Assembly (NCBI GenBank): GCA_016763645.1
Contig: JAESTK010000092.1
Coordinates: 1-40,838, forward strand
Source: Flavobacteriales bacterium
Lineage (GTDB): Bacteria > Bacteroidota > Bacteroidia > Flavobacteriales_G > NORP312
Direction of reading: 5' to 3'
DNA: 40,838 bases
In this document: positions 375 to 25,852 of the stretch, in pieces
How the letters are laid out: every line of letters starts with the position of its first letter
Position numbering within the stretch: position 1 is the stretch's first letter
Translations under genes and position numbers: made by a program
Notes under the pieces: model-generated
Seen by the model: the letters and a program-made list of their open reading frames with translations, nothing else
What the model was told of the DNA's origin: nothing
The model's database searches: none

Positions 375-1877
375 TTACCCCAAAACCTCAATACCTTTTT
401 TCATTCGACTTAACGACTCTTCTTTACCAATAATTTCCATTATTTCGAAAAGGTTTGGGCCACCACCAACACCAGTGATGGTAAGACGAATAGCAACCAT
501 GGCAATGCCAAAACCTAGTTCGTTATCTTCAACGTATTTCTTAAACGCAATTTCAAGCGCCTCTGAATTAAATGCAGCAACGCCACCAAAAACAGAAACT
601 AAATCGGTAACAATTGATGGAGATTTCTCTTTCCATTTTTTCTTCACCATTTTCTCATCATAAGAGGTTGGCGCGGTAAAAAAGTATGAACCAGCATTAG
701 GGATGTCTTTAGCAAAAGTTACCCGTTCTTTCATTTGATTACAGACCAAGGTCAAAAGGTTAAAGTCAAAAGAAGAGTCTCCTATAAATTCAGCCAATTG
801 GCTGCCTGATTTTGCTTTTAAATATTCTTGATTAAACAATCTTGCTTTATCGGGATCAAATTTCGCACCTGCCTTCCCTACCCTATCGAGCGAAAAAGCA
901 GCAATTAGTTCTTTGATAGAAAAAATCTCTTGTTCTGTGCCTGGATTCCAGCCTAAAAAGGCGAGCATGTTGACAAATGCATCAGGGAAATACCCTTCTT
1001 CTTTATATCCCGTTGAAATATCTCCGCTTTTTGGGTCTTTCCATTCTAGCGGAAAAACAGGAAAGCCTAGTCGATCGCCATCGCGCTTACTTAATTTGCC
1101 AGGGCCATCAGGCTTTAAAATCAAAGGCAAGTGAGAGAAAGAAGGCATAGCATCTTCCCAGCCTAAAAAGCGATATAATAACACGTGGAGAGGTGCCGAA
1201 GGCAACCACTCTTCACCACGAATAACGTGGGTGATTTTCATGGCATAATCGTCAACTACATTTGCTAAATGGTAGGTTGGCATTCCGTCAGATTTGAAAA
1301 TTACCTTATCGTCCATTGTGTTGGTTTGCACGGAAACAGAGCCACGAATTTCATCGGTAAACTTCACTTCTTCATTAGCAGGAACCAATAAGCGAATAAC
1401 ATAGTTCTCTCCTTCACTTAGTTTTGCATCAATTTCATCTTTTGATAGGGTGAGCGAATTATTCAATGTGTCTCTATTTGAAGAATCATAAGAAAAGGTC
1501 TTTTTCTCAGCCTCATATTGCTTACGTAAGGCGTTTAATTCGTCTAGTGTGTCAAATGCATAGTAAGCGTTGCCTGATGCGATTAATTGCTCTGCAAATT
1601 GCGCGTACGAAGCTTTTCTTTCCGATTGTCGATAAGGACCATACTCCCCTCCTACTCTAGGGCTTTCGTCTGGGGTTAATCCACACCACTCTAAAGCGTC
1701 TAACACGTAGTCTTCGGCTCCTTCTACAAAACGGGTTTGGTCAGTGTCTTCAATTCTCAGGATAAAATCTCCTCCATGTTTTTTGGCATATAAATAATTA
1801 TATAAAGCAGTTCTAACACCACCAATATGTAAAGGACCAGTTGGGCTTGGGGCAAATCTTACGCGTACTTTCGACAT
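375..1877 (-). CDS. gltX: Glutamate--tRNA ligase
   Basis: RFAPSPTG-LHIGG (HIGH motif), LRIEDTD, KLSKR (KMSKS equivalent). Confidence 0.98.
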   Translation of the reverse strand: MSKVRVRFAPSPTGPLHIGGVRTALYNYLYAKKHGGDFILRIEDTDQTRFVEGAEDYVLDALEWCGLTPDESPRVGGEYGPYRQSERKASYAQFAEQLIASGNAYYAFDTLDELNALRKQYEAEKKTFSYDSSNRDTLNNSLTLSKDEIDAKLSEGENYVIRLLVPANEEVKFTDEIRGSVSVQTNTMDDKVIFKSDGMPTYHLANVVDDYAMKITHVIRGEEWLPSAPLHVLLYRFLGWEDAMPSFSHLPLILKPDGPGKLSKRDGDRLGFPVFPLEWKDPKSGDISTGYKEEGYFPDAFVNMLAFLGWNPGTEQEIFSIKELIAAFSLDRVGKAGAKFDPDKARLFNQEYLKAKSGSQLAEFIGDSSFDFNLLTLVCNQMKERVTFAKDIPNAGSYFFTAPTSYDEKMVKKKWKEKSPSIVTDLVSVFGGVAAFNSEALEIAFKKYVEDNELGFGIAMVAIRLTITGVGGGPNLFEIMEIIGKEESLSRMKKGIEVLG

Positions 1878-1907
1878 CTTTTAAAATTTTGCGCAAAGAT
1901 AGGAAAG
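1856..1907 (-). repeat. Direct repeat copy 1: gltX promoter and first 7 codons
   Basis: 1856-1877 is identical (22 bp) to 14038-14059; 1892-1907 matches 14072-14087 at 15/16; contains the -7 element TATCTTTG (minus, 1894-1901). Confidence 0.85.
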
Positions 1908-2036
1908 GCGCTAGAAAAAAACGAGTGATTCTTACAATTGGATAGAGAATTTAATTCCGTTAGCATTGCTGTAGTAAGCAAACATTATGAGGATTTATGT
2001 ATTGAGAGAACAATGCTTGTTTGTTAAAGAGTATGC

Positions 2037-2044
2037 TATTTTTG
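2037..2044 (+). promoter_or_regulatory. Bacteroidota -7 promoter element TATTTTTG, 5 nt before the ATG at 2050
   Basis: Matches TAnnTTTG. Confidence 0.55.
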
Positions 2045-2049
2045 CTTAA

Positions 2050-3600
2050 ATGTTTGATTTGACAACAAAAAAATCCAGAATCTTAAAGCTTGCTCTATTC
2101 GCAACAGGATTATCGGGGATAGTTGCTGAGTACATCCTCTCCACTCTTGCTACCTATTTTCTTGGAGATTCCATTTTTCAATGGACTATGATATTATCTA
2201 TCATGCTGTTTTCTATGGGTGTAGGAAGTAGAATTAGTGCTTCGTTTACAGACAAGATTCTAGAGAAATTTTTAATGGCAGAATTCGCTTTATCGTTGCT
2301 TACCTCAACGGCTGCTCTAGGCTGTTATGTAATGATGGGTTACACTAGTTATATCGGGGTAATAATTTATGGGTTTTCAATCGCAATAGGGCTTTTAATA
2401 GGCATGGAAATCCCCTTAGTGATCAGAATAAATGAGGAAAATGAAGATTTAAGAACAAACATTGCTGGAGTAATGGAAAATGATTATTACGGCAGTTTAA
2501 TTGGAGGATTGTTCTTTGTCTTTGTTGGATTACCATATTTAGGACTAACCCATACTCCTTTTCTGCTTGGGGGAATCAATTTCTTGGTTGCCATACTTCT
2601 GTTTTGGAAATTGAAACATCATATTGGAAGTGGCTTCAGGAAAATATGTATGGGGGTTATACCATTGCTTTTTCTCACACTGCTTTTTCTTGGGGTTGGA
2701 GCAGATCAAATTGTTTTACATGGTGAACAAAAGCGGTATGGAGATAAAGTCATTTTCTCAAAGCAAACCCGGTATCAAAAAATAACGATAACGCAATATC
2801 AAGAACACTATTGGCTATACCTCAATGGCAGTAAACAACTATGTACATTTGATGAGTGGCTATATCACGAACCGCTTGTACACCCAGTTATGCATTTAAG
2901 TAAAGATCCTCGGTCTGTATTAATTTTAGGCGCTGGAGATGGGTGTGCTATTCGAGAAGTTCTTAAATACAAAGGAGTTGAGCAAATTACGTTGGTGGAC
3001 ATAGACCCAGAAATGACCAAAATAGGAATGTCAAACCCCATATTTACCCAACTGAATGATAGCGCGTACTACGACCCAAAAGTCAAGGTGGTTAACCAAG
3101 ATGCTTTTCAATATTTAATGGAAACCGATCAATTTTTTGACGTGATGATCCTCGACTTTCCTGACCCAAAAAGTATTGACATTAATCGAGTTTACACCAA
3201 AGAATTTTACCAGCTTTGCAATAAGAAGTTAAGAAACAATGGAGTTCTCGTTACGCAAGCAGTTAGTCCATACTACACTACTAAAGCATATCGATCAATA
3301 GAGAAAACTGTTGCTGCGGCAGGATTTAATTCTTTGGCAATTCACAACCACGTTTATTCATTTGGTGAATGGGGCTGGGTAATTGGTTCAAAAACACTAA
3401 CGTCTGATGAGATTAAAGCAGAGCTGCAAGCCACCTCTTTTGACGATATTGAAACACAGTGGATGACACCAGAATCTATAATATTAATGACCTCTTTTGG
3501 AAAAGATTTACAAGATGCAGATTCGGTGGAAGTTAACACAATTCAAAATCCAGTTCTCTATCGTTACTATCTGGATGGAGTTTGGGCTAGGTATATGTGA
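2050..3600 (+). CDS. speE: Membrane-anchored polyamine aminopropyltransferase (spermidine synthase-like), paralog 1
   Basis: ~7 N-terminal TM helices, then TRYQKI, LYLNG, YHEPLVHP, LILGAGDG, LVDIDP, ILDFPDP, SFGEWG. Confidence 0.9.
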   Translation: MFDLTTKKSRILKLALFATGLSGIVAEYILSTLATYFLGDSIFQWTMILSIMLFSMGVGSRISASFTDKILEKFLMAEFALSLLTSTAALGCYVMMGYTSYIGVIIYGFSIAIGLLIGMEIPLVIRINEENEDLRTNIAGVMENDYYGSLIGGLFFVFVGLPYLGLTHTPFLLGGINFLVAILLFWKLKHHIGSGFRKICMGVIPLLFLTLLFLGVGADQIVLHGEQKRYGDKVIFSKQTRYQKITITQYQEHYWLYLNGSKQLCTFDEWLYHEPLVHPVMHLSKDPRSVLILGAGDGCAIREVLKYKGVEQITLVDIDPEMTKIGMSNPIFTQLNDSAYYDPKVKVVNQDAFQYLMETDQFFDVMILDFPDPKSIDINRVYTKEFYQLCNKKLRNNGVLVTQAVSPYYTTKAYRSIEKTVAAAGFNSLAIHNHVYSFGEWGWVIGSKTLTSDEIKAELQATSFDDIETQWMTPESIILMTSFGKDLQDADSVEVNTIQNPVLYRYYLDGVWARYM

Positions 3601-4661
3601 TGTGGTTATTCGGACGAAATCTAGATTTACTAGCCCTTTTCATCCCAGTGTGGGTAATCTGGGCACTTCTTTTTTGTCTACCGGTAGAAACGCTTGATAC
3701 GGAAATTCCTCTTTGGGCCTGGGTAGTTGGTGTTTTAATGATTGATGTTGCCCATGTTTGGAGCACTACTTTTCGAACTTATTTCGATAAAGAAGAGTTT
3801 TCAAATCACAAGCAGCTTCTCGGGCTTACGCCTATCATTTGTTTTGTAATTCTGTTTACGCTAGCAAGCGAGTCGGTTGAGTGGTTTTGGCGGCTACTGG
3901 CATATTTGGCACTGTTTCATTTTATAAAGCAGCAATATGGGTTTTTTGCCTTGTATTCTGTAAAATCGGGAGCAATAAAAGTAAAACGCTACATTTCCGA
4001 CAAACTCACAATCTATTTATCGATGCTCTATCCTGTTTTATTCTGGCACCTCAATGTCCGAAAATTTAGTTGGTTTGTAGAAGGCGATTTTTTTCAATTT
4101 CACGTAGATTCAGCGCTCGTCTGGTCAGTATTAAATTACGTTTATTGGCTAATTATTTCGGGGTGGTTGGTGGATGAGATTAGATTAATAAAACAGCAGA
4201 AGATTCATTTTTCAACGGGCCGAATCTTATGGTTGTTTACGACAGCTTTCAACTGGTACTTGGGGATCATCTATTTCAATTCAGATCTTGCTTTTACCTT
4301 AACCAATGTTGTCGCCCATGGCATTCCGTATATAGCTTTGGTTATTTACTATCAAGCGACAAAAGAAACACGGACTTCTTCCAATAAGCGACCTTCAATT
4401 TTGATTATCGGATGTGTGATCATAATTGGATCCTTACTATTTGCGTTTGGAGAAGAGTACCTATGGGATCTCTTTCTCAATCAAGACAAACAGGAATTGT
4501 TCGGCTCGTGGATTTCGTATCCTGAAATATCAAACCCCAGACTTCAAGCTATTGCCTTAGCGTTGCTTTCGTTACCACAAGTTGTACATTACGTGCTTGA
4601 TGGCTTTATTTGGAAAATGAATGATACGAACCCTCACCTTAGAAATATGATGAATGAATAG
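3597..4661 (+). CDS. Polytopic membrane protein with four His motifs (putative membrane metalloenzyme)
   Basis: ~8 TM segments; DVAHVWST, LFHFIKQQYG, VAHGIPY, VVHYVLDGFIW; start overlaps the upstream stop. Confidence 0.75.
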   Translation: MMWLFGRNLDLLALFIPVWVIWALLFCLPVETLDTEIPLWAWVVGVLMIDVAHVWSTTFRTYFDKEEFSNHKQLLGLTPIICFVILFTLASESVEWFWRLLAYLALFHFIKQQYGFFALYSVKSGAIKVKRYISDKLTIYLSMLYPVLFWHLNVRKFSWFVEGDFFQFHVDSALVWSVLNYVYWLIISGWLVDEIRLIKQQKIHFSTGRILWLFTTAFNWYLGIIYFNSDLAFTLTNVVAHGIPYIALVIYYQATKETRTSSNKRPSILIIGCVIIIGSLLFAFGEEYLWDLFLNQDKQELFGSWISYPEISNPRLQAIALALLSLPQVVHYVLDGFIWKMNDTNPHLRNMMNE

Positions 4662-6153
4662 AAGAGCATTCATAAAAATAGGGACACTTGTTTTTGCTGT
4701 TGGCGTTGGTTGTAGATCAGAAAAATCAAGGGAACATTCAAGTAGCTACGCGATTACGATTGACTCAAACCGATCGATTGGTCACCTTGCTCGGAATTCA
4801 TTTCTCCATAGTGTCTCAGAAGAAATAAAAACTGATGTTCTTGTGGTCGGGGCGGGAATTGCAGGTATGGCTGCGGCATGTTCTCTACAGCATAGGGAGG
4901 TTATTGTCTGCGACTTAAACCCTAGGCTTGGAGGCACTTCTGGGGCAGTTACCATTGGAAATCAACAATTTTCTCAAGGAGCGTATTACGACATGTCTTA
5001 TCCTGGATACTATGGGAGTGATGGACTTAAACTATTAGAATCTCTAAAGGTAATAACGTATAACAAAACCTTAGATCGATGGGATTTTATAGAGAAACAA
5101 CACCTGATTAGTTTAACAGCAGAGGAACGGTGCTATCGAAATGGCGGGCTCGATGCATCGGTATTAATGGATTCCGAATTGAAGCAAAACTTTCTAGATT
5201 TGTTGCGCCCGTATTCTGGAAAAATGGTACTCCCTTCAAGCGAAATAGGGTTGGATAGTATACGATTAGATCATTTAACTTTTTCTGAATATTTAAACAA
5301 ATACCTTCCTGTAAATTCTGATTTTATGGAGGCAATCGATTACCAAATGATGGACGATTACGGAGGAAAAAGTGATCAAGTATCTGCTTTAGCGGGAATT
5401 CACTATTACCGCTGTCGTCCGTATTACCAGAAACCAGAACCAGAAATACTTTCACCCACCGAAGGCAACTATTATTTCATAAATAAAATGGTAAACCAGT
5501 TGAGTTTGGAACAAATTAAACTAGACAGCCTTGTAGTTGGAATGGAAAAACTAAAACAAGGATGGGGTGTTGATGTCTGGGAAGTAGCAAACGATAGAAA
5601 AGTTAGATACAAGTGTAACAACGTAATATACGCAGGTCAAAAACACCTCTTAAAGTATTTGCATCCAGAATCATACAAGACCTTTAGCGATGTAAAATAC
5701 GCCCCTTGGATTGTCATAAACATTGAGTTGCAAGGAGAGTCTATCGACAATGATTTTTGGCAAAACGATTACCTTTCTACAAATGCTCAGTTTCTTGGAT
5801 TTGTGAACTCACGAGCGCAAACCAAAGAGGGCAACCGTGTATTAACAGCGTATTATTGTTATCCTGACATCTACCACCATATGGTGCAGGATTTGGAAAA
5901 CGGAGCACGTGAAATCGTAGAACAAACAATTGGATTTATCAATACTTATTTCAAAAAGGACCTTGAACCTTTTATCAAACACGTTTACGTGAAATTACTG
6001 GGCCACGCGATGCCGGTTCCTGTGCCCAGATATCTAAGCAAGAAAAGGCAATTAGAACAAAATGGACTTTCGTTTGCCGGGGCAGACACAGGAAGGTTAC
6101 CACTGATGTTTGACGCCTTAGATTCGGGTATTCAAGCAGCTAAGAGAATTTAA
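4654..6153 (+). CDS. FAD-dependent oxidoreductase (amine oxidase-like) with Tat/lipoprotein signal
   Basis: MNRRAFIK twin-Arg, VGVGC lipobox-like motif, VLVVGAGIAG dinucleotide-binding motif, RLGG, GHAMPVP, FAGAD. Confidence 0.85.
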   Translation: MNRRAFIKIGTLVFAVGVGCRSEKSREHSSSYAITIDSNRSIGHLARNSFLHSVSEEIKTDVLVVGAGIAGMAAACSLQHREVIVCDLNPRLGGTSGAVTIGNQQFSQGAYYDMSYPGYYGSDGLKLLESLKVITYNKTLDRWDFIEKQHLISLTAEERCYRNGGLDASVLMDSELKQNFLDLLRPYSGKMVLPSSEIGLDSIRLDHLTFSEYLNKYLPVNSDFMEAIDYQMMDDYGGKSDQVSALAGIHYYRCRPYYQKPEPEILSPTEGNYYFINKMVNQLSLEQIKLDSLVVGMEKLKQGWGVDVWEVANDRKVRYKCNNVIYAGQKHLLKYLHPESYKTFSDVKYAPWIVINIELQGESIDNDFWQNDYLSTNAQFLGFVNSRAQTKEGNRVLTAYYCYPDIYHHMVQDLENGAREIVEQTIGFINTYFKKDLEPFIKHVYVKLLGHAMPVPVPRYLSKKRQLEQNGLSFAGADTGRLPLMFDALDSGIQAAKRI

Positions 6154-7682
6154 TAAAGATCCCAATTTGCGTTGAGTTGATACCGATAGAGCACAGGATC
6201 ATTAATTGTATTGATTTTGATCTCACTAGTATCAGCTAATGGCTTTCCAAAAGATAACATCATATCAACCGATTCTAAATTAAGCCAGCGTGTATTAACT
6301 TTTGGAAAATCAGGATCATGTAACAAGTGCGTCATTTCTTCTACCGTGAAACGCTTTGAACCAAGTATCCAGCCCCATTCACCCATCGAAGGAATTTGAT
6401 TGTGCAGTTTCAATGTTTCGAAACCAGAACTTTTCATTGTTTTATTGATGCATTCATACGCCCGCGTTGCGTAATACGGACTACCTGCTTGAGTTATTAT
6501 GTGGCCATTTGGTCTTAAATGTAAGTGGGCCATGGCGTAGAACTCCCTCGTATACAGCTTGTTCAAATCAACACCTTTTGCATCAGGTAAATCGACAATA
6601 ATAACATCGTAAAAGTCCTTTGTATTCTGTACGTAAACGAAGCCATCTTCGTTTAGAACGCGAACCCGAGCGTTATGTAATGATGAGTCATTTGCAAGTA
6701 CAACGGGTAGGTAACCTTTCCCAATTGAAGTCATTTCTGGATCGAGATCAACTATGGTTATACTTTCTACATCATCATATTTCAAAAGCTCCTTGACATT
6801 AAAACCATCACCACCCCCAATAATCAAAATATCTTTGCGCTCTTTGCTAATTTGCATGATTGGATGGATCATTGGTTCGTGATAAAGAAACTCATCTATG
6901 GTGCTCAATTGCAGATTTCCATTAATGTAGAGCCAATAACTATCCAACCAAGTAGTAATCACTATTTTCTGATATTTAGATTCCTTTACAAAAACGATCT
7001 TGTCTTTGTATCTATTTTGCTCTCCGTAAAGCATTATCTGATCTGATTTCAAGAATCCGAATCCAAGTATAAAAACAACTAGAACTCCAATTCCAAGAAT
7101 CCACGATTTGTTCTGCTTTTGTTCTTTCCAATAGGATAAGAGGAGCAGTGTTGCAGCCAAAAAGTTTAGCAAACCAAACAGAAATGCAGTATTCTTAATT
7201 CCCAAATGAGGAAGGCCCCAAAAAGCGAATGCAAGACCCCCAACTAAGCTCCCAACATAATCCCAAGATAACACACTCGACACATTGGTATTGATGTCTT
7301 CAAACTCTTCGTTTAATCTGGTAACTAATGGTATTTCGAATCCAATACACAATCCGATTAAAGCACTTAATCCGTATACCACGATGTGAATATATTGAGT
7401 GTATCCAGCTATACTATAAACAACTAATGGAGAGATACAGATAAGAACGGATAAACCAAATTCAATTAATAGAAACGTCTGTAATACATTGCCTTTGATG
7501 TATCTACTTAGTTGACTGCCTATCCCCATCGTAAAGAGCATAACGGAAAGAACGATCGTCCATTGAACAATTGTGTCTCCGATAAAATAAGAAGCTAGAG
7601 TTGATAATATAAACTCAGAAACTATACCTGAGATGCCCGTTGCAAATATTGCTGTTTTTAAAAAATACGAACGGAGTTTCAA
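6150..7682 (-). CDS. speE: Membrane-anchored polyamine aminopropyltransferase, paralog 2
   Basis: Same architecture as 2050-3600: SKYQKI, LYINGNLQ, YHEPMIHP, LIIGGGDG, IVDLDP, IVDLPD, SMGEWG. Confidence 0.9.
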   Translation of the reverse strand: MKLRSYFLKTAIFATGISGIVSEFILSTLASYFIGDTIVQWTIVLSVMLFTMGIGSQLSRYIKGNVLQTFLLIEFGLSVLICISPLVVYSIAGYTQYIHIVVYGLSALIGLCIGFEIPLVTRLNEEFEDINTNVSSVLSWDYVGSLVGGLAFAFWGLPHLGIKNTAFLFGLLNFLAATLLLLSYWKEQKQNKSWILGIGVLVVFILGFGFLKSDQIMLYGEQNRYKDKIVFVKESKYQKIVITTWLDSYWLYINGNLQLSTIDEFLYHEPMIHPIMQISKERKDILIIGGGDGFNVKELLKYDDVESITIVDLDPEMTSIGKGYLPVVLANDSSLHNARVRVLNEDGFVYVQNTKDFYDVIIVDLPDAKGVDLNKLYTREFYAMAHLHLRPNGHIITQAGSPYYATRAYECINKTMKSSGFETLKLHNQIPSMGEWGWILGSKRFTVEEMTHLLHDPDFPKVNTRWLNLESVDMMLSFGKPLADTSEIKINTINDPVLYRYQLNANWDLY

Positions 7683-7683
7683 G

Positions 7684-8547
7684 TTACGAGAAACTCATGC
7701 AAATCAACATCGCACCACCAACATAACCAAAAGCCTCAATTACTCCAGCTCCGACATTTGGTTTTTCCTGATTAACAATTTCGTCTGTAAGTTTTCTCCC
7801 GGGTAATAAAATCTTATCGGTAAGTACACGTGCCAACGGCAGCATCAATAGACCGATCCCAGTTTCCATACCAAGATTTTCAACTACTTGTATCCAAGAT
7901 TCAGCATCAATCTGGGCGCCATGGCGAATCAATATAGCTATAGCAACCATAGCTCCGGCATAGCCTACTCCTACGGCAACGTTGTCTTTTTCGATGTGTT
8001 CATGAATGTCGTAAGGCGTAATCCAATTGTAAACGATTGACACCAACAATAAAAAAACCTGAGACACCCCCCATAGACCGATAATGCCAAGGTAATTGTC
8101 TGGATTTTCTGCCATTACACCGTGAATAATTAAACCATTTGCAACACAAATAGCTCCCTCGATTACTCCAGTTCCAACGTTTTGATCTTCTATAATTTCT
8201 TTCCGAAGATCAAATTTTCGAAGAATAAATTTATCTGTAATAAATATGGAAACGTTAAGAAGAACAATTGCCAATAGACCAAATGTCATTATTTCAATAA
8301 GGTTGTCGACAATGTGACCAATGTCATCGCCCTCATATAAGCTGGCAATTGCTATTAACAACCCAATGTAGTATCCTACGTTTGCAAACGCAAACGCTAG
8401 GTTATCTTTTTCAACCAATTCGTGGTCAATGTCAATTTTCTTGTTGACTAGTTTATAAAAATACTTCCCGATAAAAAATAGCGCAAAACTCGCTAATAAA
8501 TAAATGAGTGCAGTAAGTACCCCGTCTAATGTCGCTAGAATATCCAT
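7684..8547 (-). CDS. DUF350 (YjfL-like) membrane protein, tandem-domain form
   Basis: Four repeats EKDNLAFA, EDQNVGTG, EKDNVAVG, EKPNVGAG, each between TM helices. Confidence 0.8.
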   Translation of the reverse strand: MDILATLDGVLTALIYLLASFALFFIGKYFYKLVNKKIDIDHELVEKDNLAFAFANVGYYIGLLIAIASLYEGDDIGHIVDNLIEIMTFGLLAIVLLNVSIFITDKFILRKFDLRKEIIEDQNVGTGVIEGAICVANGLIIHGVMAENPDNYLGIIGLWGVSQVFLLLVSIVYNWITPYDIHEHIEKDNVAVGVGYAGAMVAIAILIRHGAQIDAESWIQVVENLGMETGIGLLMLPLARVLTDKILLPGRKLTDEIVNQEKPNVGAGVIEAFGYVGGAMLICMSFS

Positions 8548-8561
8548 GTTTTACTTTTTAT

Positions 8562-9251
8562 TTATTTACCAAATCCTGAACTTCTTCCTGAATGCCCTGA
8601 TCTGCCCCGGCTACCACTCCAACCAGACCTTGATGACTTTCTCGCAAAGAAATCTGGGCGTGATTTTCGCGTTCCAGCAGAACTGGTTCCATACTTCGAT
8701 TTTCCGCCCGTTTTAGGGCCATAATACCCCTTGCTTCCATAATACCCACCACGGTACGAGGAATAATCACTGCGGTATATTGGTCGGTGCATCATTCCAA
8801 ACATTTGGGACATAAACATATATTGTCCATAAAATGCCCAAAAAGAAGTGCCATTGTTGTTTCTCCACTCTCCATATCTTCCATTACCAACATACTGATA
8901 ACCTGGAGGAGAGACATTTTTTTCTAATTTTCCGTCCTTTTTATAACAAAGAGTCATGCCCAAATTTTCTTCGTTGGCCCAGAAAAACTTTTCATCAACT
9001 TCTTTCCAAGCACTTTTTGTTTCAACGGGAGTTCCTTCCGAATCTTCAAGTATAACCTTGTACTGATGTTTGTAGGTTTTAAAAAATCTCCCCTCAACAT
9101 CCATATTCTCTAATATAATTGCAAAGTTCTGTTGATCAGAATACTGACTTATATAGTCGTCAACTGGAGATTTTACGAACGCTCGTCCTCCACAGCTAAC
9201 GAAAACCATTGCAGCGAAAACTAGAACCGAAATATTTAAGATCTTATTCAT
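8562..9251 (-). CDS. Lipoprotein with Gly/Ser/Arg/Tyr low-complexity C-terminal tail
   Basis: Lipobox VFVSC; YGEW..NNGTSFWAFYGQY motif; tail ...SRGRSGHSGRSSGFGK. Confidence 0.8.
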   Translation of the reverse strand: MNKILNISVLVFAAMVFVSCGGRAFVKSPVDDYISQYSDQQNFAIILENMDVEGRFFKTYKHQYKVILEDSEGTPVETKSAWKEVDEKFFWANEENLGMTLCYKKDGKLEKNVSPPGYQYVGNGRYGEWRNNNGTSFWAFYGQYMFMSQMFGMMHRPIYRSDYSSYRGGYYGSKGYYGPKTGGKSKYGTSSAGTRKSRPDFFARKSSRSGWSGSRGRSGHSGRSSGFGK

Positions 9252-9272
9252 GTTATTACTCGTTAATTACGT

Positions 9273-9803
9273 TTATCTAGGCAATATGTTTGAGAATTCT
9301 ATCTCTTTAACATAGCTTCCTTTGGCCGCTGAAAAATCTTCTTCACCCCATCTGTCTATGGAGATAAAATTTTCCCCATTTTCAAACATCCAATTTACAA
9401 ATTTAGCATAATCTTCTTCATTATCGCGTTCTTCTCCACAGTGTCCTTGACCAGAGGAAGTCCTTGTGTATGTAATGTTCTGGTGAACTATTTGTTGCGG
9501 TGCGTCATCCTGATCTACAATCTGTTTAACCAGACCAGCATCAATGTCGCGTATCTCGATCTTCTGTGAGAGCGAGCAGACCAATTTGTCTTCATCTTCT
9601 ACATGAAGATAGTACGTTTCTTTACCTGAGTCTAAAAGGTATTCTCTCGTTTCAAGGTTGTTTCCCCAGTCGTACAGGTAAACTTTTTTTACTTCCCATG
9701 TTTCCATGAAATAGTCGACCATATAACCGACTCCAAGCTCGTTAACAGTATAATTTATCTGCGCTTCTTTTGTCTTTTTTTTAAATCTATCGAATAAACC
9801 CAT
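9273..9803 (-). CDS. DUF4178-like protein
   Basis: Acidic beta-rich 176 aa protein with W.V...Y.W...REY.L pattern; amphipathic N-terminus MGLFDRFKKK; operon context. Confidence 0.65.
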   Translation of the reverse strand: MGLFDRFKKKTKEAQINYTVNELGVGYMVDYFMETWEVKKVYLYDWGNNLETREYLLDSGKETYYLHVEDEDKLVCSLSQKIEIRDIDAGLVKQIVDQDDAPQQIVHQNITYTRTSSGQGHCGEERDNEEDYAKFVNWMFENGENFISIDRWGEEDFSAAKGSYVKEIEFSNILPR

Positions 9804-9810
9804 AGTATTA

Positions 9811-10647
9811 TTATTTGTGAATTTTTTGGCCGCAATGGTCGCATGTTAGATCGTGCGATTCCGGCTCATCGTTTTGTTTATCATTATCAGTTGGTTTTTC
9901 GATTACCTTACCGAATCCATTTGCTAAAATTCCGGCAGGTAAAGCAAACAAACCAACGCCAAGAATTGCCATTATTCCTCCAATAAATTTACCTAAAGAA
10001 GTTATAGGATATACATCGCCATAACCAACAGTTGTTAGCGTTGCAACTCCCCACCACATGGTAGCAGGAATACTCGAAAAGGCTTCTGGTTGGTCATCGT
10101 GCTCTATGTAGTACATTAAACAAGAAGAAATTACAAGCAGCATTAATACACCACATAAAGATATCACCAACTCTTCTTTAGCACCGTTCATAACTTGCCT
10201 AATCTGACTAAAGGCTTTATTGTACCTCGATAATTTCAATAGTCTAAAAAGCCTAAGTACTCGAATTCCTCGAATTACTCGTGAGTCTACGGTAATCAAA
10301 AGAGGAATGTACGCAGGAATAACAGCCGCTAAATCGATTAAGCTGTAAAAAGAGAACATATATTTTAACCGACCACGAAATGGAGGGGAATACTTTTCTT
10401 TCTCAGTAATTGACCAAATTCTCAACAAGTATTCAACGGAAAAGAAAATGATAGAAAATGTTTCTATATTTGAGAAAAGTAGTCCGTAATCTTCTCTCAT
10501 CCATTGGACTGATTCTAGAATTACAGCCACAATATTCAACAGTATAAGGAGGATTATAAAAATGTCGACCCGCTTGCTCCAGGTGTCGTTTTCCTGGCCT
10601 TTTTCAAGAATCTCGTAGGTGCGTCTTTTAATATTTTGATAACTCAT
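9811..10647 (-). CDS. Voltage-gated-type potassium channel (6TM)
   Basis: TTVGYGD selectivity filter; S4-like IRGIRVLRLFRLLKLSRY; C-terminal CDHC. Confidence 0.92.
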   Translation of the reverse strand: MSYQNIKRRTYEILEKGQENDTWSKRVDIFIILLILLNIVAVILESVQWMREDYGLLFSNIETFSIIFFSVEYLLRIWSITEKEKYSPPFRGRLKYMFSFYSLIDLAAVIPAYIPLLITVDSRVIRGIRVLRLFRLLKLSRYNKAFSQIRQVMNGAKEELVISLCGVLMLLVISSCLMYYIEHDDQPEAFSSIPATMWWGVATLTTVGYGDVYPITSLGKFIGGIMAILGVGLFALPAGILANGFGKVIEKPTDNDKQNDEPESHDLTCDHCGQKIHK

Positions 10648-11011
10648 GCCCCGCTTCTTTAAATTGAAGATTCCCTCTCTTTATGGTCTGGTAACTATGG
10701 GTGTTTGATTTCAATTTTAGGACTAGCAGATTATATGCTTGGTTATAGTCCATATCCTGATTGCAGGTGAAAAAGTCAACTGCAGCGTAGCCGTGCTCCG
10801 GCCACGTGTGGATTGCTAAGTGACTTTCTGAGACTACTATTACGCCTGTTATCCCTTGCGGGGAGAACTTATGAAAAACTGATTTGATTATTGTTGCTTT
10901 CGAAACTAAGGCTGCATCGTTCATGGTTTGCTTGATCTCCTCTAGATCGTCAAGCGTTTTTGAGGGGCAGTCATGAAACTCCATTAAAATGTGCAATCCC
11001 AATCCTTCCAT
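10628..11011 (-). CDS. speD: S-adenosylmethionine decarboxylase proenzyme
   Basis: HKFSPQGITGV, SESH pyruvoyl cleavage site, HTWPE, DFFTC; start placed at ATG 11011 (MEGLGLH) rather than 11059. Confidence 0.95.
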   Translation of the reverse strand: MEGLGLHILMEFHDCPSKTLDDLEEIKQTMNDAALVSKATIIKSVFHKFSPQGITGVIVVSESHLAIHTWPEHGYAAVDFFTCNQDMDYNQAYNLLVLKLKSNTHSYQTIKRGNLQFKEAGHELSKY

Positions 11012-11015
11012 GAAA

Positions 11016-11216
11016 TTAATCCTTAGATCTAAAAAATTTGTACCAAATGTATACCCCAATTAATATTATCGCAATTGGAAGTATGAATTTTAGCGCTAAT
11101 TTGAATAACCACCAAGCCACCGTGAGGAGCCCTACTACGAATATGATCTGTATAATCGTTGATTTTTTCACTCGAATCTTACTTTTAATTATTGGAGGAA
11201 GATCGCCTTCCTCCAA
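11016..11216 (-). CDS. Small two-TM membrane protein (start may be GTG at 11171)
   Basis: Hydrophobic hairpin with basic ends; fills the gap between pspA and speD. Confidence 0.7.
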   Translation of the reverse strand: MEEGDLPPIIKSKIRVKKSTIIQIIFVVGLLTVAWWLFKLALKFILPIAIILIGVYIWYKFFRSKD

Positions 11217-11234
11217 TGTGTGGATATAAAGTTT

Positions 11235-11948
11235 CTAAGCCTCTTTGGATTTACTCATTTTAGCTTTAAGTGCGGCTAGACTATCAGATGCTGCAACAGT
11301 GGTACTTCCTCCAATTGCTTTATCAATTTCATCATCAAGCGATTTGCTTTCATTTGCTATGTCCCCGTAGGCGTCAGCCAATGCTTCTTCTTGCTCCACC
11401 TTCTCTTTCATTCTTTCGAGCATCGAAATTGTGTCACTCGAATCAATTGAAGCCATTTGTTTGTTGAGGTTTTTGGTAGCGGTAGCAACTTTGACTCTTG
11501 CCTTAAGTGTTTTAAGCTCATTTTCCCAAGAGCTAATTTTAGAGCGTAACGTTTTTACGTTTACTTCTAACTTACTAACGTTTTGGTCAAATTGAGTTTG
11601 CTCTCCTGAAGCTCTTTCAACATGAGTTTCACATTCCACTTTTTTGTTTAAAGCCTCAGTAGCCAAACGATCAGCCTCTGCGCTATCCATTTGCCCTGAT
11701 TCAGCTTTTTGAAGTAACAACATGGCCTTTTTTTCATAATCAACCCCTCTTTCTTGTTGTTCTCTAATTTCGTTGCGGGATCTAATAGCAAGGGCTTTTA
11801 CTTCTGCCATCGCTTTCAAACAACCTTCAAGATCTTTTTTCATATCTCTAATGCCTTGCTCAGTCATTTTTATTGGGTCTTCTAATTTATCTACCACCGC
11901 ATTAGCTTCGGCTTTTCCCAATGTGAATAATCTTTTAAATAAACTCAT
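11235..11948 (-). CDS. pspA: PspA/IM30 family protein (bacterial ESCRT-III-like)
   Basis: MSLFKRL amphipathic helix, LEDP.KM.EQ.IRDM, LA.EAL, long coiled coil, LAALKAKM C-terminus. Confidence 0.93.
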   Translation of the reverse strand: MSLFKRLFTLGKAEANAVVDKLEDPIKMTEQGIRDMKKDLEGCLKAMAEVKALAIRSRNEIREQQERGVDYEKKAMLLLQKAESGQMDSAEADRLATEALNKKVECETHVERASGEQTQFDQNVSKLEVNVKTLRSKISSWENELKTLKARVKVATATKNLNKQMASIDSSDTISMLERMKEKVEQEEALADAYGDIANESKSLDDEIDKAIGGSTTVAASDSLAALKAKMSKSKEA

Positions 11949-11961
11949 TTTTTTGTCCTCC

Positions 11962-12357
11962 TTATTTTTTTGAAAATTTGATTAGCTCATCAGCGTACTC
12001 TGTTAAAAGTAAGCTCAACGAATTCAATGATCCTTCTATTTCGTTCATGTCTAGGTTCTCAATTTGAAGAGTATCTCTGAATATTACCTTCGTTCCAGTT
12101 TCGTCTAGAACAAATGCGCCATGAATAATATCACGGTTTTTCATTAACAAGCTTCGAAATACTTCACCTGAATCGCCATTGAGCTCCAGAATGTGTTGTT
12201 CCATAATTAAGATGGGGTCAGCACAGCCAATCGCGCAATTTTTGATTCCAGACGACTCGTCTTCTATAATGATTATCTGATCCTCTTCATTAGCAGCAGT
12301 AATCGTATATCCCAAGTCTAAAACGTAGTTTTTAACGATGTTGAAATTATCTTTCAT
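11962..12357 (-). CDS. CesT/YbjN-like chaperone-fold protein
   Basis: Acidic 131 aa; LL.KN....HGAF.LD....VIFRDTLQ.ENLD pattern; first gene of the pspA operon. Confidence 0.7.
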   Translation of the reverse strand: MKDNFNIVKNYVLDLGYTITAANEEDQIIIIEDESSGIKNCAIGCADPILIMEQHILELNGDSGEVFRSLLMKNRDIIHGAFVLDETGTKVIFRDTLQIENLDMNEIEGSLNSLSLLLTEYADELIKFSKK

Positions 12358-12391
12358 TGAATTGTAATTTTAAATTTTCGATTTACTTCTT

Positions 12392-12399
12392 CAAAAGTA
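12392..12399 (-). promoter_or_regulatory. -7 promoter element TACTTTTG for the pspA operon (second candidate TATGTTTG at 12512-12519)
   Basis: TAnnTTTG matches on the minus strand. Confidence 0.45.
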
Positions 12400-12519
12400 A
12401 TTATTTACACGAAATAATAAGGCCCTGAGGTTCAGTAAACCGAAATGCTAAATCATTATTTTCGTTGGTTAATATTAGTTTGAATTATTTTGTTTTTATC
12501 AATCGACAGGACAAACATA

Positions 12520-12583
12520 CTAAAAATATTAGCACAAACTAATTTATTTGGCTAATTATTTTATTTATTGCAAAATATTTTAG
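12520..12583. promoter_or_regulatory. Four CTAA-N5-TTAG palindromes, putative XRE operators
   Basis: CTAAAAATATTAG 12520, CTAATTTATTTGG 12539, CTAATTATTTTAT 12552, CAAAATATTTTAG 12571; spacing 19/13/19. Confidence 0.55.
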
Positions 12584-12613
12584 TAATTTGTCATTATTCA
12601 CAACAGGTTATGC

Positions 12614-13339
12614 ATGTCTAAAATAGGGTCTAATATTCGTAAAATACGCTTAGTTAAAGGACTTAGCCAATCTGCTTTTGGCAATTTGTTTAATCTGAAG
12701 AGAGCTAATATTGGTGCATATGAGGAACTTCGTGCAGAACCGAAGATAGATGTAGTAATCGAAATTGCTAAATATTTTAGTGTTCCGTTAAGTGATATTT
12801 TCACAAAAGATTTGACGGTAAATCAATTGACGAAGTTTAGTGCTGCTGAAGATATGAAATCAACTCAGCGGCAAGAAAAAACAGAAAATTACTTTTCGTT
12901 AGGTCATATTAGCGCAGAATTATTGATGAATCGTATTAAACTTTTTGAACAACTAGAAAAAGATAACATTCACCAAATACAATTCCCAAAAGTTGTTGAC
13001 CATGCAGATAAATTCTTTGAAATCAAGGGGGTACTAATTCTTGGTGCCAAGAATCAGCAATATCATGGGCTTATTTGTTCAAGTATCAGGCAGGGGGTTA
13101 AAAGCATGATTGTGCTTGTGTTGTCTGATAAAAGGATTGCTCTTGGAGAATATTTAGGAGGTAAAGAAAAGGTAACAATTAAACTTCAAGACTCGCAAGA
13201 GGAGACTATAATTGAAGATGTGAGGCAGTTGTTTGAAGTTAAATTAATGGTTTCTCAGCCAGGTACTCAATCAACCAATATTGCACAAAGATTATTGACC
13301 ATTGAAAAGCGCGTTAACAATCTCGAAGGAAAAAGCTAG
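12614..13339 (+). CDS. XRE-family HTH transcriptional regulator
   Basis: NIRKIR..KGLSQ..F..L....R..IGAYEE.RAEP HTH; divergent from the pspA operon. Confidence 0.9.
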   Translation: MSKIGSNIRKIRLVKGLSQSAFGNLFNLKRANIGAYEELRAEPKIDVVIEIAKYFSVPLSDIFTKDLTVNQLTKFSAAEDMKSTQRQEKTENYFSLGHISAELLMNRIKLFEQLEKDNIHQIQFPKVVDHADKFFEIKGVLILGAKNQQYHGLICSSIRQGVKSMIVLVLSDKRIALGEYLGGKEKVTIKLQDSQEETIIEDVRQLFEVKLMVSQPGTQSTNIAQRLLTIEKRVNNLEGKS

Positions 13340-13905
13340 TCTTTATCCGTGTTAAATAGGTAGCCAAGAGCCCCTCCACAAAGTCCCCCGAAAATATGTC
13401 CAAATTGAGAGATGTTGTCAATTGAAAAGCTGTTATAGATCTCTTTCCCTAAATAAATTACTACTATAAAGATAAAGGTAAGGGGAACTTCTTTGGCCCT
13501 CATATTTACTATTGAAGATAAAATGATGAACATAAACACGATTCCGCTAGCTCCGATTATGCCACTATTGAAGAGCAGTGCATTAAGTAGGCCCGTTGAT
13601 ACAGCCGTTATAACTGTCATTAAAGCAAGATTTTTAGCACCATATTTTTCTTCCAAAATAGGCCCAAGCATCAATAAATAAAAGAAATTCCCTAAGAGGT
13701 GGTCAAAATTAGCGTGACAAAAAATGTAGGTTACTAGCCTATAAATCTGACTAGTTTGAATAACAGGATTTAAAGAAAAAAGATGATTTATTAAGCCGCC
13801 AAACGCCAAGTTTAGAATTAACATTGCAAACGATATGAGACAAAAACTCAAAGTAAATTTTGCGTTATAGGTAATCGACCAACTTTTAAAAGAATTGATT
13901 TGCAT
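13336..13905 (-). CDS. Rhomboid intramembrane serine protease
   Basis: YRLVTY.F.H, HLLGN, GASG (catalytic Ser), GHIFG (catalytic His). Confidence 0.92.
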   Translation of the reverse strand: MQINSFKSWSITYNAKFTLSFCLISFAMLILNLAFGGLINHLFSLNPVIQTSQIYRLVTYIFCHANFDHLLGNFFYLLMLGPILEEKYGAKNLALMTVITAVSTGLLNALLFNSGIIGASGIVFMFIILSSIVNMRAKEVPLTFIFIVVIYLGKEIYNSFSIDNISQFGHIFGGLCGGALGYLFNTDKD

Positions 13906-14037
13906 GCTTTTCCGTTGAAGTTATTTGTTCATGGTTTTGTCTTTGTTGCGGTTGCAAGTTAAGAATAACTTGACGTGTAAATTTCGGTTTGATTGGGACC
14001 TTGTGCGATCAATATATGATCTACGTAGTTTGGGACC

Positions 14038-14087
14038 ATCTTACGCGTACTTTCGACATTACTCAAATTTTCGCAAAGAAAGGAAAG
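14038..14087 (-). repeat. Direct repeat copy 2: vestigial gltX 5' end (MSKVRVR then WSQTT*) with a decayed -7 element
   Basis: 22-bp identity to 1856-1877 plus a CGCAAAGA.AGGAAAG match; mini-ORF 14059-14021. Confidence 0.85.
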
Positions 14088-14098
14088 ACATCGTGAGT

Positions 14099-14581
14099 TC
14101 ACGACTTGTTTAGCATCCCCTTCTTGTTAGCCCACCAACCAAACCAAAATATAAGACTGGTTGCTAAAACCATAAAAGCAATTCCGCCCAACCTTTTATT
14201 TCTTTTGGTGTTTTTGTAAGGAATTATGATAGTGTCATTAACAGAAACTTGGACGCATTCGAATTCGTTCGAAGCCTTATGCTTTATAGAACCGTAGACA
14301 GTAATTTTTGACTTGGCGGAAAGCTTATTTAACATGTAAGAGTTGACTCGTAGCGCTCCGAGAAAAGGTTTATAAATAAGGCTATCATTCTCTAATTTAA
14401 TAGAAATGAATTTCTTCTTAGGTTCATCAATTATTTCAGCGGTTGAAATTATGCCCGAACGAATTTCATAATCCTCTACTGTCATTAGTGAGTCGTGGAA
14501 AAATGACAGACCTAAAAGAAGCCAAACGAGCCCAATCGCAAAAACAAGCAATACGGCAATGATATTTTTCAAAAGCGTCAT
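14099..14581 (-). CDS. Hypothetical membrane protein (two TM helices flanking a soluble domain)
   Basis: 160 aa ORF; start overlaps the SSS gene stop. Confidence 0.7.
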   Translation of the reverse strand: MTLLKNIIAVLLVFAIGLVWLLLGLSFFHDSLMTVEDYEIRSGIISTAEIIDEPKKKFISIKLENDSLIYKPFLGALRVNSYMLNKLSAKSKITVYGSIKHKASNEFECVQVSVNDTIIIPYKNTKRNKRLGGIAFMVLATSLIFWFGWWANKKGMLNKS

Positions 14582-25400: not shown

Positions 25401-25852
25401 GAGGAATGAGTAAAAAGCTTGCTGAACTTGCTGCACAACAAGAAGCATTGCGAAACGAAGTTCAAAAGATTGCCGACAAAATGGGTAGAGAAGGAGAAAA
25501 CGAAGGCGAGGGAGAAGGGAAAGGAGGCAAAGGAAATCTCGAAAAACTAGCCGAGATGATGGAAGAAAACGAGAAAGACATCGTTAATAAAAATATTACG
25601 CAAGAAACAATTCGCAGACAAAGAGACATCATGACACGACTTTTAGAGCATGAAAAAGCCGAGCGAGAACGAGAGTTTGACGAGAAAAGACAATCGCAAG
25701 AAGCAAAAAATCAAGAAATTAGTAACCCTTCAGAATTTTTTGAGTATAACATCATGAAACAAAAGGAGGCAGAGCTGCTAAGAACAGTTCCGCCAACAAT
25801 GAACAGTTTCTACAAGAACAAGGTAAATGAGTATTTTAATCAAGTAGAGTAA
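22460..25852 (+). CDS. DUF4175-family membrane-anchored coiled-coil protein
   Basis: N-terminal TM helices, Ig-like middle, DDYGL, YYFEVWDNDG, long E/K/Q coiled coil, YK.KV..YF C-terminus. Confidence 0.85.
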   Translation: MSNGSSTYSELISKLDEFIRRFYKNQLIKGTIYSLALLLSYFLLTVLVDFVGEFETTLRTVLFYGLILASTATVVKFLLVPGAKLFNMGDGLSHDEAAKIIGSHFSSVQDKLLNVLQLKQLSDTNNSELLYASIDQKVMEINPVPFAAEIDFSENKKYLRFALPPVFVLLLLFIVTPNILKQGTERLVNHTQHFAPTAPFTFTISNESLSAIKGENFTINVSVNGQELPNNAFVEINGSQFRLKKVSKTEFSYTIKNIQENTDFRITADGFYSEAQQINVVPQPLLLGFNIKLNYPKYIKRENSSLNNTGDMVVPEGTEAVWTFTTKDADKLRLTFADTSFVVEQSAKGTYKYVERIRKSNNYFVSTSNEFMRSKDSVMYSISVVPDQYPSIEVEEQVDSLSSKRIYFRGNIKDDYGLSKMTFNYKFNGSDSVSPKELIVEPILVNKTTQDYFFHYWDISDLPVSAGDQIEYYFEVWDNDGINGSKSTKSTKMIFKAPTLDQLAEQNDKSSEEIKEKLEESLKDAKEIQEDLEKFQKKLLEKKELSWEDKKRLEELLEKQKKLEKNIEKVKQENQQMQNEQSEYKEQEERIVEKQKQIQELFEQVMTDEMKEMFKELEEMMEKLNKEELQEKLQEMKLTNKDIEKELDRTLETFKQMEFEMKLEETIEKLDELAKEQKELAEETKEKDADKEDLKEKQQEIKEKFEELQKDMDELAEKNEELENSHKMPDTEQEEQEAKKQMEESSEELSEGKKKKASESQQSAGDEMQKMSEKLQNMQQEMQEKQAEDIEALRQLRDNLIALSFDQEQLMKEVKTIKNHSPYYVELIQRQKKLSDDAKMVEDSLFALSKRQPKIRSVVNREMTQINENIEKSIDLLSNHNPPKRFNQYIAEAAGREQYIMTSLNNLALMLDEAIQQMQQQMSEQKFGDKSCSKPGNSSQPKPGSMKKMQKSLSKQMEQLKKEMEAGKKPGQKPNGSSPGGGMSKKLAELAAQQEALRNEVQKIADKMGREGENEGEGEGKGGKGNLEKLAEMMEENEKDIVNKNITQETIRRQRDIMTRLLEHEKAEREREFDEKRQSQEAKNQEISNPSEFFEYNIMKQKEAELLRTVPPTMNSFYKNKVNEYFNQVE

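Follow-up and report, generated by a model that had tools for sequence, protein, structure and literature searches.

A PspA and membrane aminopropyltransferase locus in a Flavobacteriales bacterium, viewed as a hybrid form of an already published cluster class

Gene content and layout of the locus

We analyzed a 40,838-nucleotide stretch of DNA from a Flavobacteriales bacterium (called the window below), in which fourteen genes at positions 2050-13905 bring a PspA protein together with an S-adenosylmethionine decarboxylase (AdoMetDC; SpeD) and two membrane-bound aminopropyltransferases of the SpeE type. The window is an entire contig of a metagenome-assembled genome (MAG; 3.31 Mb, 361 contigs, 92.1% complete by estimate). 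We find that the block consists of three separable modules lying side by side, plus a mobile pair of speD and a voltage-gated-type K+ (Kv) channel gene, and is no single self-contained system. Module 1 is a CesT-like/PspA pair with a small protein of two transmembrane (TM) segments and a divergent XRE regulator. Module 2 contains a DUF4178 protein, a lipoprotein, an 8-TM DUF350 protein and a 7-TM::SpeE fusion. Module 3, hereafter the triad, combines a second 7-TM::SpeE with a His/Asp-rich membrane protein of about ten TM helices and a lipoprotein resembling flavin amine oxidases, which carries a signal for export by twin-arginine translocation (Tat). The identities of all fourteen genes, first assigned in an earlier note on this DNA, were confirmed by open reading frames (ORFs), translations, and Pfam and NCBIfam matches.

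The triad forms a rightward operon of three genes. SpeE_A (2050-3600, + strand, 516 aa) is a 7-TM::aminopropyltransferase that scores 557 bits with PRK03612 (cut-off 472), with the Spermine_synth domain at residues 271-447. Reading the junctions directly, we found that its stop codon and the following start share ATGTGATG. The next gene encodes a polytopic, His/Asp/Glu-rich membrane protein of 354 aa with about 10 helices and no known family (3597/3600-4661, +); it probably starts with the ATG at 3600. It overlaps by 8 nt with the flavoprotein gene (4654-6153, +), whose 499-aa product contains NAD_binding_8 and DAO domains (Pfam) behind an N-terminal MNRRAFIK...VGC signal.

The stop codons of the flavoprotein gene and of SpeE_B overlap, and the two operons hence converge without a spacer. 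The leftward operon (- strand) comprises nine genes, with cesT first and SpeE_B last in transcription. The CesT/Tir-like chaperone-fold protein (11962-12357, 131 aa) matches PF22550 (CesT_Tir_1) over its full length with 181.5 bits and is followed after 13 nt by PspA/IM30 (11235-11948, 237 aa; PF04012, PspA_IM30, 154.3 bits) and by a small 2-TM hairpin protein of no family (11016-11216, 66 aa). speD (10628-11011) encodes a class 1b AdoMetDC proenzyme of 127 aa (AdoMet_dc, 132 bits; TIGR03330, 135.6 bits at a cut-off of 75.65). It most likely begins with the ATG at 11011, 4 nt past the small-protein stop, rather than with the upstream TTG of the ORF list, and it overlaps the channel gene by 20 nt. 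The channel itself (9811-10647, 278 aa; Ion_trans 112 bits, Ion_trans_2) has a TTVGYGD filter and an Arg-rich S4-like helix. The DUF4178 protein (9273-9803, 176 aa; PF13785, 74.2 bits) has no signal peptide and should be cytoplasmic. It precedes a predicted lipoprotein (8562-9251, 229 aa), which has a signal peptide ending in VSC, Cys20 and a Gly/Ser/Arg/Tyr-rich tail, and a YjfL-type membrane protein with two DUF350 stretches and about 8 TM segments (7684-8547, 287 aa; PF03994, 188 bits). SpeE_B (6150-7682, 510 aa; PRK03612, 534 bits), the second 7-TM::aminopropyltransferase, completes the operon, in which the other intergenic gaps measure 1-21 nt. The junctions bear out the tight packing and convergent arrangement reported before, and the block indeed contains no putrescine or agmatine synthesis gene.

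An XRE-type regulator of 241 aa with a helix-turn-helix (HTH) domain (12614-13339, +; HTH_3) diverges from cesT-pspA, and the 3' end of its gene is overlapped by 4 nt by a rhomboid gene (13336-13905, -). Promoter and terminator counts in our scan match those of shuffled sequences (40 versus 39.6 and 11 versus 8.7, respectively); the sigma-70 consensus used differs from that of Bacteroidota.

The block is surrounded by the housekeeping genes gltX, a solute symporter, mnmG and porZ. The last of these (29795-32137, +) encodes a PorZ-type component of type IX secretion (PF21544, 131.7 bits), which fits the Bacteroidota origin of the contig. A 160-aa 2-TM ORF of no family lies beside the rhomboid gene (14099-14581, -), and a 1130-aa ORF with a DUF4175 match is found at 22460-25852 (+). 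At 24-25 kb, within the latter, strand composition becomes extreme (AT skew 0.50, GC skew 0.28).

Distribution and modularity

We surveyed related loci in one genome per species with the 354-aa protein as probe, which returned 582 relatives. The best 80 loci were taken and searched by tblastn with the window proteins, and 54 of these 80 extend 5 kb or more to either side of the 354-aa gene (full loci). Cultured carriers include Flexithrix dorotheae DSM 6795, Pedobacter sandarakinus, Mucilaginibacter sp. CAU 1740, Flammeovirga aprica and Aquimarina species. SpeE and the flavoprotein are both found in 37/54 full loci, speD in 30/54 and the K+ channel in 16/54. The counts are 20/54 for DUF350, 19/54 each for the lipoprotein and DUF4178, 13/54 for PspA, 12/54 for CesT and 9/54 for XRE, with 16/54 full loci having two SpeE genes. 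The rhomboid, said to complete the block in the earlier note, occurs in 4/54 full loci; these are its only occurrences in all 80 loci, and three of them are Flavobacteriales MAG records close to this genome. It is probably no member of the system.

The triad is conserved in at least six phyla, often without PspA: we found it in Bacteroidota, Melainabacteria/Cyanobacteriota, Myxococcota, Planctomycetota, Acidobacteriota and one Pseudomonadota record. Its gene order varies over the 107 loci examined. The order seen in the window, SpeE-unknown-FAD (where FAD denotes the flavoprotein gene), occurs 30 times, in Flavobacteriales and Cytophagales. SpeE-FAD-unknown occurs 20 times and is the arrangement of Sphingobacteriales, Chitinophagaceae, Melainabacteria, Myxococcota, Planctomycetota and Acidobacteriota.

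We also tested the reverse, starting from 300 evenly sampled Bacteroidota genomes. Not counting the window's genome, 22 have a strong CesT match (14 weak matches are left out of this count), and cesT adjoins pspA in 22/22. The genes for DUF4178, lipoprotein, DUF350 and SpeE stand beside this pair in just 2/22 (L104 and L107). Full-length matches to the 354-aa protein were present in five sampled genomes, with SpeE and FAD genes adjacent in 5/5, PspA nearby in 0/5 and speD within the fetched stretch in 3/5. A SpeE of the PRK03612 type scores above the cut-off in 12/300 genomes, and no genome of the searched set other than that of the window has two copies. A single self-contained unit, as proposed earlier, is not supported by these counts: the triad and the cesT-pspA pair each recur, and the modules are usually apart.

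The locus survey and the reverse test together indicate that the full window layout is a lineage-specific juxtaposition. It is found in uncultured Flavobacteriales and, in rearranged form, in Ekhidna, Cyclobacteriaceae, Reichenbachiella and one Vicinamibacterales record. Because large parts of it recur in other genomes, the arrangement is not due to chance. The speD-Kv pair is mobile between modules 2 and 3: speD adjoins the channel gene in 16/17 channel-bearing loci, on the same strand in 15, and the pair belongs to the PspA-side operon in Flavobacteriales and to the triad operon in Cytophagales. A coupling of the system to K+ flux is suggested by this gene linkage alone.

Membrane aminopropyltransferases and their partners

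SpeE_A and SpeE_B share 50% identity over their whole length. Both keep the glycine-rich GDG motif (GAGDG), DIDPEM and a D-x-x-D motif (LDFPDP and VDLPDA), which we take to be the dcSAM (decarboxylated S-adenosylmethionine)-selective and catalytic motifs of SpeE. The nearest solved sequences to their C-terminal domains are polyamine aminopropyltransferases (7xif, 1iy9, 3anx/1uir and thermospermine synthase 6bq2), the closest of which (7xif, 1uir/3anx and 6bq2) are of the broad or long-chain type. In a quick maximum-likelihood tree calculated from the last 300 residues of 66 SpeEs (5'-cut ORFs and ORFs shorter than 390 aa left out), SpeE_A falls into a clade of nine rows exclusively from triad contexts, and SpeE_B into one of seven rows, all adjacent to DUF350. 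Both clades have a value of 99 in the Shimodaira-Hasegawa-like approximate likelihood ratio test. The label 'triad' requires four changes on this tree compared with a shuffled mean of 17.6, and none of 500 shuffles is as low. The two enzymes keep to their contexts and, given their divergence and these context-pure clades, are by sequence old paralogues rather than the result of a recent duplication.

Seven consensus hydrophobic segments are seen in an alignment of 53 full-length SpeEs (490-540 aa; SpeE_A numbering, our own hydropathy consensus). Lys and Arg cluster at the N-terminus and in loops 61-73, 126-137 and 187-200, and loops 38-45, 95-103 and 165-171 are almost free of them. By the positive-inside rule, this distribution places the N-terminus inside and predicts a catalytic domain outside the cytoplasmic membrane. 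Glu-27, Asp-40, Glu-78, Glu-120 and Asp-145 are 80-90% conserved in the same alignment, and acidic residues within the helices would suit the passage of a cationic substrate. The triad SpeEs of Ekhidna and some Cyclobacteriaceae (L020, 8787-9992, +; L023, L030, L028 and L032) are only about 400-420 aa long, with a reduced membrane domain of about five hydrophobic segments, and form their own long-branched clade.

The 354-aa protein represents a conserved family of membrane proteins that has no name and is encoded mainly in company with a membrane SpeE and an exported oxidase. Its homologues number at least 3921, and no Pfam domain is found among the 120 matches listed. His-53, His-71, His-108, His-151, His-241 and His-331 are invariant in 30 sequences, which also share a KQQ motif and contain numerous Asp and Glu residues. 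An AlphaFold2 (AF2) model with about 10 long helices (predicted local distance difference test (pLDDT) score 85.2; predicted TM-score 0.83) gave no Foldseek match in the PDB at E <= 0.001, and a best VIA-align Z of 6.4 against 48,161 chains, within the stated noise for helical models. The family profile found no PDB sequence at E <= 10, the one Pfam match at E <= 10 is spurious, and the ESM Atlas returned unnamed clusters only at 0.96, its best named cluster reaching 0.77. Where the gene is detached from its partners, a PRK03612 SpeE is encoded elsewhere in 5/5 genomes. Three lone copies (L026, L054 and L080) have no common theme among their neighbors, which include genes for HMG-CoA reductase, GNAT, TGT-like and PQQ-propeller proteins. 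A distant paralogue family of about 390-450 aa, matching just the first 150-260 positions (45-61 bits), is present in 24/300 sampled Bacteroidota (e.g. L091, 5389-6567; L092, 5078-6379). The two members inspected have no Pfam domain and uninformative neighbors.

The flavoprotein is probably a Tat-exported, lipid-anchored enzyme with an amine-oxidase fold. A Tat-type motif is found in 44/52 homologues, and at least 28 homologues have a Cys after the signal, in line with the periplasmic location suggested in the earlier note. Many homologues carry PF01593. Foldseek matches of its AF2 model (pLDDT 86.3) include L-amino acid oxidase (LAAO) 7eme, monoamine oxidases (MAO) A and B, putrescine oxidase 2yg6, maize polyamine oxidase 3l1r and spermidine dehydrogenase (SpdH) 7d9i, with E from 4.5e-21 to about 1e-18, TM-scores (query/target) of 0.55-0.72 and 13-18% identity. 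It shares with these flavin amine oxidases the two-domain FAD fold and differs from them by its predicted Tat export and lipid anchor and by this low identity.

SpeD is by sequence an AdoMetDC. A SESH...HTWPE...FFTC motif is visible, with a Glu-Ser site, a His at +5 and a Cys at +20, presumably the functional residues of AdoMetDC. It is the sole copy found in the genome. In module 2, the lipoprotein gene adjoins those for DUF350 and DUF4178 in 21/80 loci, and its product has no Pfam or NCBIfam match. A simple hydropathy scan finds seven hydrophobic segments in the DUF350 protein. The DUF4178 protein begins with a short hydrophobic and then Lys-rich peptide (MGLFDRFKKK here, MSFFKRLFG in L045), which is seen in 21/21 homologues and resembles the amphipathic N-terminal helix of neighboring PspAs (MSLFKRLF). 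With this peptide, the protein may be anchored at the inner leaflet or may compete for a binding site of PspA.

PspA is likewise encoded by a single copy found in the genome and, as with the CesT-like protein, SpeD and DUF4178, lacks a signal peptide. We predicted its complex with the CesT-like protein from alignments of 22 and 26 sequences and obtained a score of 0.60 (best control 0.01), graded by the tool as weak support. The mark used was reached by 58/80 solved complexes and 2/110 mismatched pairs, and of the 80 solved complexes only 7 pass at 0.60 or lower. At least 89% of contacts agree between the runs, with partner pLDDT values of at least 86. This score and the invariable adjacency of the two genes make binding of PspA by the CesT-like protein likely but unproven. 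Families of the classical Psp system (PspB, PspC and PspF) are absent from the scanned ORFs of 375-16254, the stretch to which that search was confined. An XRE homologue lies divergently beside cesT in 10/80 loci and 2/22 sampled CesT loci.

The small TM gene after pspA, listed in the earlier note, is real: it has hydrophobic counterparts of 47-56 aa at the same place in 10/13 loci, with a tblastn match also in L018. Both ends of the 2-TM protein look cytoplasmic, and it belongs to no known family. We rejected it as a Lys-terminal micro-protein acceptor for aminopropylation, as its C-terminus and those of its counterparts vary (KD, SI, RN, GF, IE, FR, TE, DK and TS).

Known relatives, rival accounts and a proposed mechanism

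The block resembles clusters that have been noticed before. In work by Li, Kurihara, Kim, Liang and Michael from 2019, clustered AdoMetDCs reportedly were active, their hosts reportedly were devoid of spermidine, and the fused enzyme is said to fail to complement an Escherichia coli speE mutant. Membrane-fused spermidine synthase (SpdSyn)-like genes linked with speD, DUF350, DUF4178 and often PspA are reportedly present in thousands of bacterial genomes, pathogens included. In this cluster, a class 1b speD reportedly accompanies a membrane-fused SpdSyn-like gene and DUF350, and an acceptor other than putrescine was proposed; module 2 is of the same type. That the SpeE-like enzymes use the dcSAM of the clustered SpeD on a non-standard acceptor, as also supposed in the earlier note, is a published hypothesis (PMC11237479, citing Li et al. 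2019).

We compared the leftward operon to the CesT/Tir-PspA operons in PMC11237479 (mSystems 2024), which describes the spread of membrane-fused SpeE-like/DUF350/DUF4178/PspA operons. The 'second major group' delineated there, exemplified by AAN56744-AAN56747, combines DUF4178 and an 8-TM YjfL/DUF350 protein with a lipoprotein described as novel and a 7-TM::spermine/spermidine-synthase-like fusion. The core of our operon, with CesT-PspA, 7-TM::SpeE, 8-TM DUF350, a predicted lipoprotein and DUF4178 tightly packed, corresponds to that description: CesT and PspA are adjacent, SpeE_B is the 7-TM fusion, and DUF350 and DUF4178 are present. The candidate for the 'Ctha_1186'-type lipoprotein of that account is the window protein that carries a signal peptide and Cys20, which is encoded where such a gene would be expected. 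Relative to the published description, the window adds speD, the Kv-type channel and the small 2-TM protein after pspA, has XRE in place of the optional ribbon-helix-helix regulator, and adds the convergent operon with a paralogous SpeE, the ~10-TM protein and the Tat-exported flavoprotein. The core operon is already described, whereas the earlier note considered the block the best candidate for an undescribed system. No experimental solution is reported in the titles and abstracts listed on membrane or periplasmic aminopropyltransferases and on DUF350/DUF4178. We therefore regard the locus as a hybrid form of a cluster class that is published but functionally unsolved.

Two further relatives share some features. 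The E. coli yjfIJKLMC-type 'third group' of PMC11237479 has a CesT-like YjfI, the PspA homologue YjfJ and the DUF350 protein YjfL along with polyamine-related enzymes and a K+ channel; AdoMetDC and polyamine oxidase are listed for some of its variants. In contrast to the window, which uses aminopropyltransferases and has none of the following, that group is described with an ATP-grasp glutathionylspermidine-synthetase-like ligase, a 4-TM DUF350, DUF1190 and DUF2491. The heat-tolerance operon yjfIJKL is reported as upregulated in heat-adapted E. coli (PMC12492005). In Pseudomonas aeruginosa, BacA (PA3732; YjfI family, with a solved type III secretion system-chaperone fold) adjoins the PspA homologue BacB (PA3731), and a strong, unpublished BacA-BacB interaction is mentioned (PMC10948618). 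BacA belongs to DUF2170, whereas the window protein belongs to PF22550, and the bac operon as presented in PMC10948618 carries no spermidine-synthase-like gene.

We propose that the locus supports dcSAM-dependent aminopropylation, on the outer side of the inner membrane, of an acceptor other than putrescine; the product would then be oxidized, and PspA would guard the membrane. We give this reading a probability of roughly 0.55. Three conserved modules would have come together in one Flavobacteriales/Cytophagales lineage, the metabolite they share probably being dcSAM. This compound would be produced in the cytoplasm by SpeD, the gene of which is fixed beside that of the voltage-gated K+ channel, and would be consumed by the two context-specific 7-TM::aminopropyltransferases with their putative outward catalytic domains, acting on an amine other than ordinary cytoplasmic putrescine. 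An outer-face location fits the Tat motif of the flavoprotein and the predicted extracytoplasmic lipoprotein. The partners of SpeE_A, the Tat-exported, lipid-anchored amine-oxidase-like enzyme and the ~10-TM His/Asp-rich protein, may oxidize and handle the product, and those of SpeE_B would be the 8-TM DUF350 protein, the lipoprotein and the cytoplasmic DUF4178 protein. The CesT-like protein may hold or regulate PspA, which would guard the inner membrane, with the divergent XRE protein as candidate regulator of that operon.

Several observations weigh against this proposal. In 14/54 full loci, the 354-aa gene has none of the other genes nearby. The triad stands beside CesT-pspA in 0/22 sampled loci, and two sampled genomes (G022 and G271) carry CesT-PspA and the triad on separate contigs; as the modules are usually apart, their adjacency here may carry no functional meaning. 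The outward SpeE topology is derived solely from the positive-inside rule and a home-made hydropathy consensus, and outward catalysis would demand dcSAM outside the cytoplasm, for which we know of no precedent. The window flavoprotein misses PF01593 at E <= 0.01, and protoporphyrinogen oxidases match its fold as well as amine oxidases do. Two arginase-fold genes and a saccharopine-dehydrogenase-like fragment at a contig end leave room in the genome for a polyamine route, and decarboxylases not found may be unassembled in a MAG of 361 contigs.

The most serious competing account, which we consider unlikely, is that three independent systems merely lie adjacent: CesT-PspA would be a generic membrane-stress unit, each SpeE module would perform its own chemistry, and only the dcSAM supply would be shared. 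It draws on the 20/22 CesT-PspA pairs that have no module 2 nearby and the 22/22 without a triad, on the 5/5 sampled triads without PspA, and on the low share of PspA (13/54) among full loci found via the 354-aa protein. Co-occurring modules are nonetheless found repeatedly in the same convergent layout, the FAD gene converging on SpeE in 16 loci from Flavobacteriales and Cytophagales, and speD and the channel sit inside either module. PMC11237479 moreover reports repeated, independent coupling of PspA-CesT with polyamine genes.

Alternatively, spermidine or some other polyamine, longer or branched, could be the product of the membrane SpeEs, the putrescine or agmatine used being imported or unrecognized and the oxidase being a catabolic polyamine oxidase. 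The dcSAM and catalytic-Asp motifs retained in both SpeE domains, the solved polyamine aminopropyltransferases most similar to them, the polyamine oxidase, putrescine oxidase and spermidine dehydrogenase among the flavoprotein fold matches and the arginase-fold genes would all accommodate such a route. We searched the genome for the enzymes it requires. Further fused major facilitator superfamily/spermidine-synthase genes (NF037959) lie on contigs C282 (2411-4000, -; 131.6 bits) and C104 (24371-25993, -; 151.1 bits), and a fifth SpeE-like match is a 187-aa fragment at a contig end (C268). The genome thus has four or five dcSAM-type transferases and a single speD. No soluble SpeE was found in the 92.1%-complete MAG, where the fully readable SpeE-like genes are all membrane fusions. 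Its single decarboxylase of the alanine-racemase fold is LysA-like (218 bits, below the 297.9 cut-off; 48 bits for speA and 35 bits for nspC); apart from this gene, our search of the genome returned no arginine or ornithine decarboxylase (ADC/ODC) of that fold, and neither a decarboxylase of the aspartate aminotransferase fold, a pyruvoyl arginine decarboxylase, nor an agmatine deiminase. A canonical SpeD/SpeE pathway, with a soluble SpeE plus SpeA/SpeB or SpeC, is accordingly not found in this MAG, and ordinary spermidine synthesis is without support in the assembled genome. The lack of arginine/ornithine decarboxylases of three fold types in what is assembled, the reported failure of such fusions to complement an E. 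coli speE mutant and reported absence of spermidine from their hosts, and the misfit of a predicted outward catalytic domain and an exported oxidase with cytoplasmic polyamine supply, make this alternative improbable.

The SpeD homologue might instead be a neofunctionalized pyruvoyl arginine/ornithine decarboxylase that supplies an amine rather than dcSAM, as described in PMC10407285, where genomes with anomalous SpeD are reported to lack canonical ADC/ODC, as is the case here. We regard this as very improbable: the protein is the only SpeD homologue facing four or five SpeE-like genes in need of dcSAM, it reaches 135.6 bits on the AdoMetDC equivalog TIGR03330 at a cut-off of 75.65, and the anomalous copies reported in PMC10407285 occur without SpeE or as a second SpeD. 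An anti-phage or anti-toxin defense island, a role entertained in the earlier note, is hardly credible: all that points to it is the designation 'phage shock protein' and mad2 in PADLOC, which the methyltransferase-like fold of SpeE matches weakly (62 bits). The 10 proteins tested yield no PADLOC system architecture and no meaningful match, only generic fold and HTH matches, and the block's neighbors are housekeeping genes.

Returning to aminopropylation at the outer face of the inner membrane, we also outline, as a distinctly speculative elaboration, how the transfer could be extracytoplasmic. The acidic 7-TM domain would pass dcSAM from the cytoplasm to the outward catalytic domain, which would covalently aminopropylate an envelope molecule, be it a lipoprotein, the head group of a lipid or a further periplasmic amine. 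The flavoenzyme might then oxidize the new amine to a reactive aldehyde or remove it, and the ~10-TM protein would represent a new dedicated enzyme or transporter family. PspA could be recruited as the modification alters membrane charge or integrity.

The locus separates the system into three modules, each SpeE module having its own paralogue, and the SpeE/exported oxidase/His-rich triad emerges as a cross-phylum unit independent of PspA. The charge distribution supports a SpeE catalytic domain outside the membrane. With modularity, triad and charge distribution taken together, the acceptor can be sought more narrowly, on the outer side of the inner membrane, and a minimal set of four genes is now defined: speD, SpeE, the membrane protein and the oxidase. 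Extracytoplasmic aminopropylation, if true, would be a new type of envelope modification.

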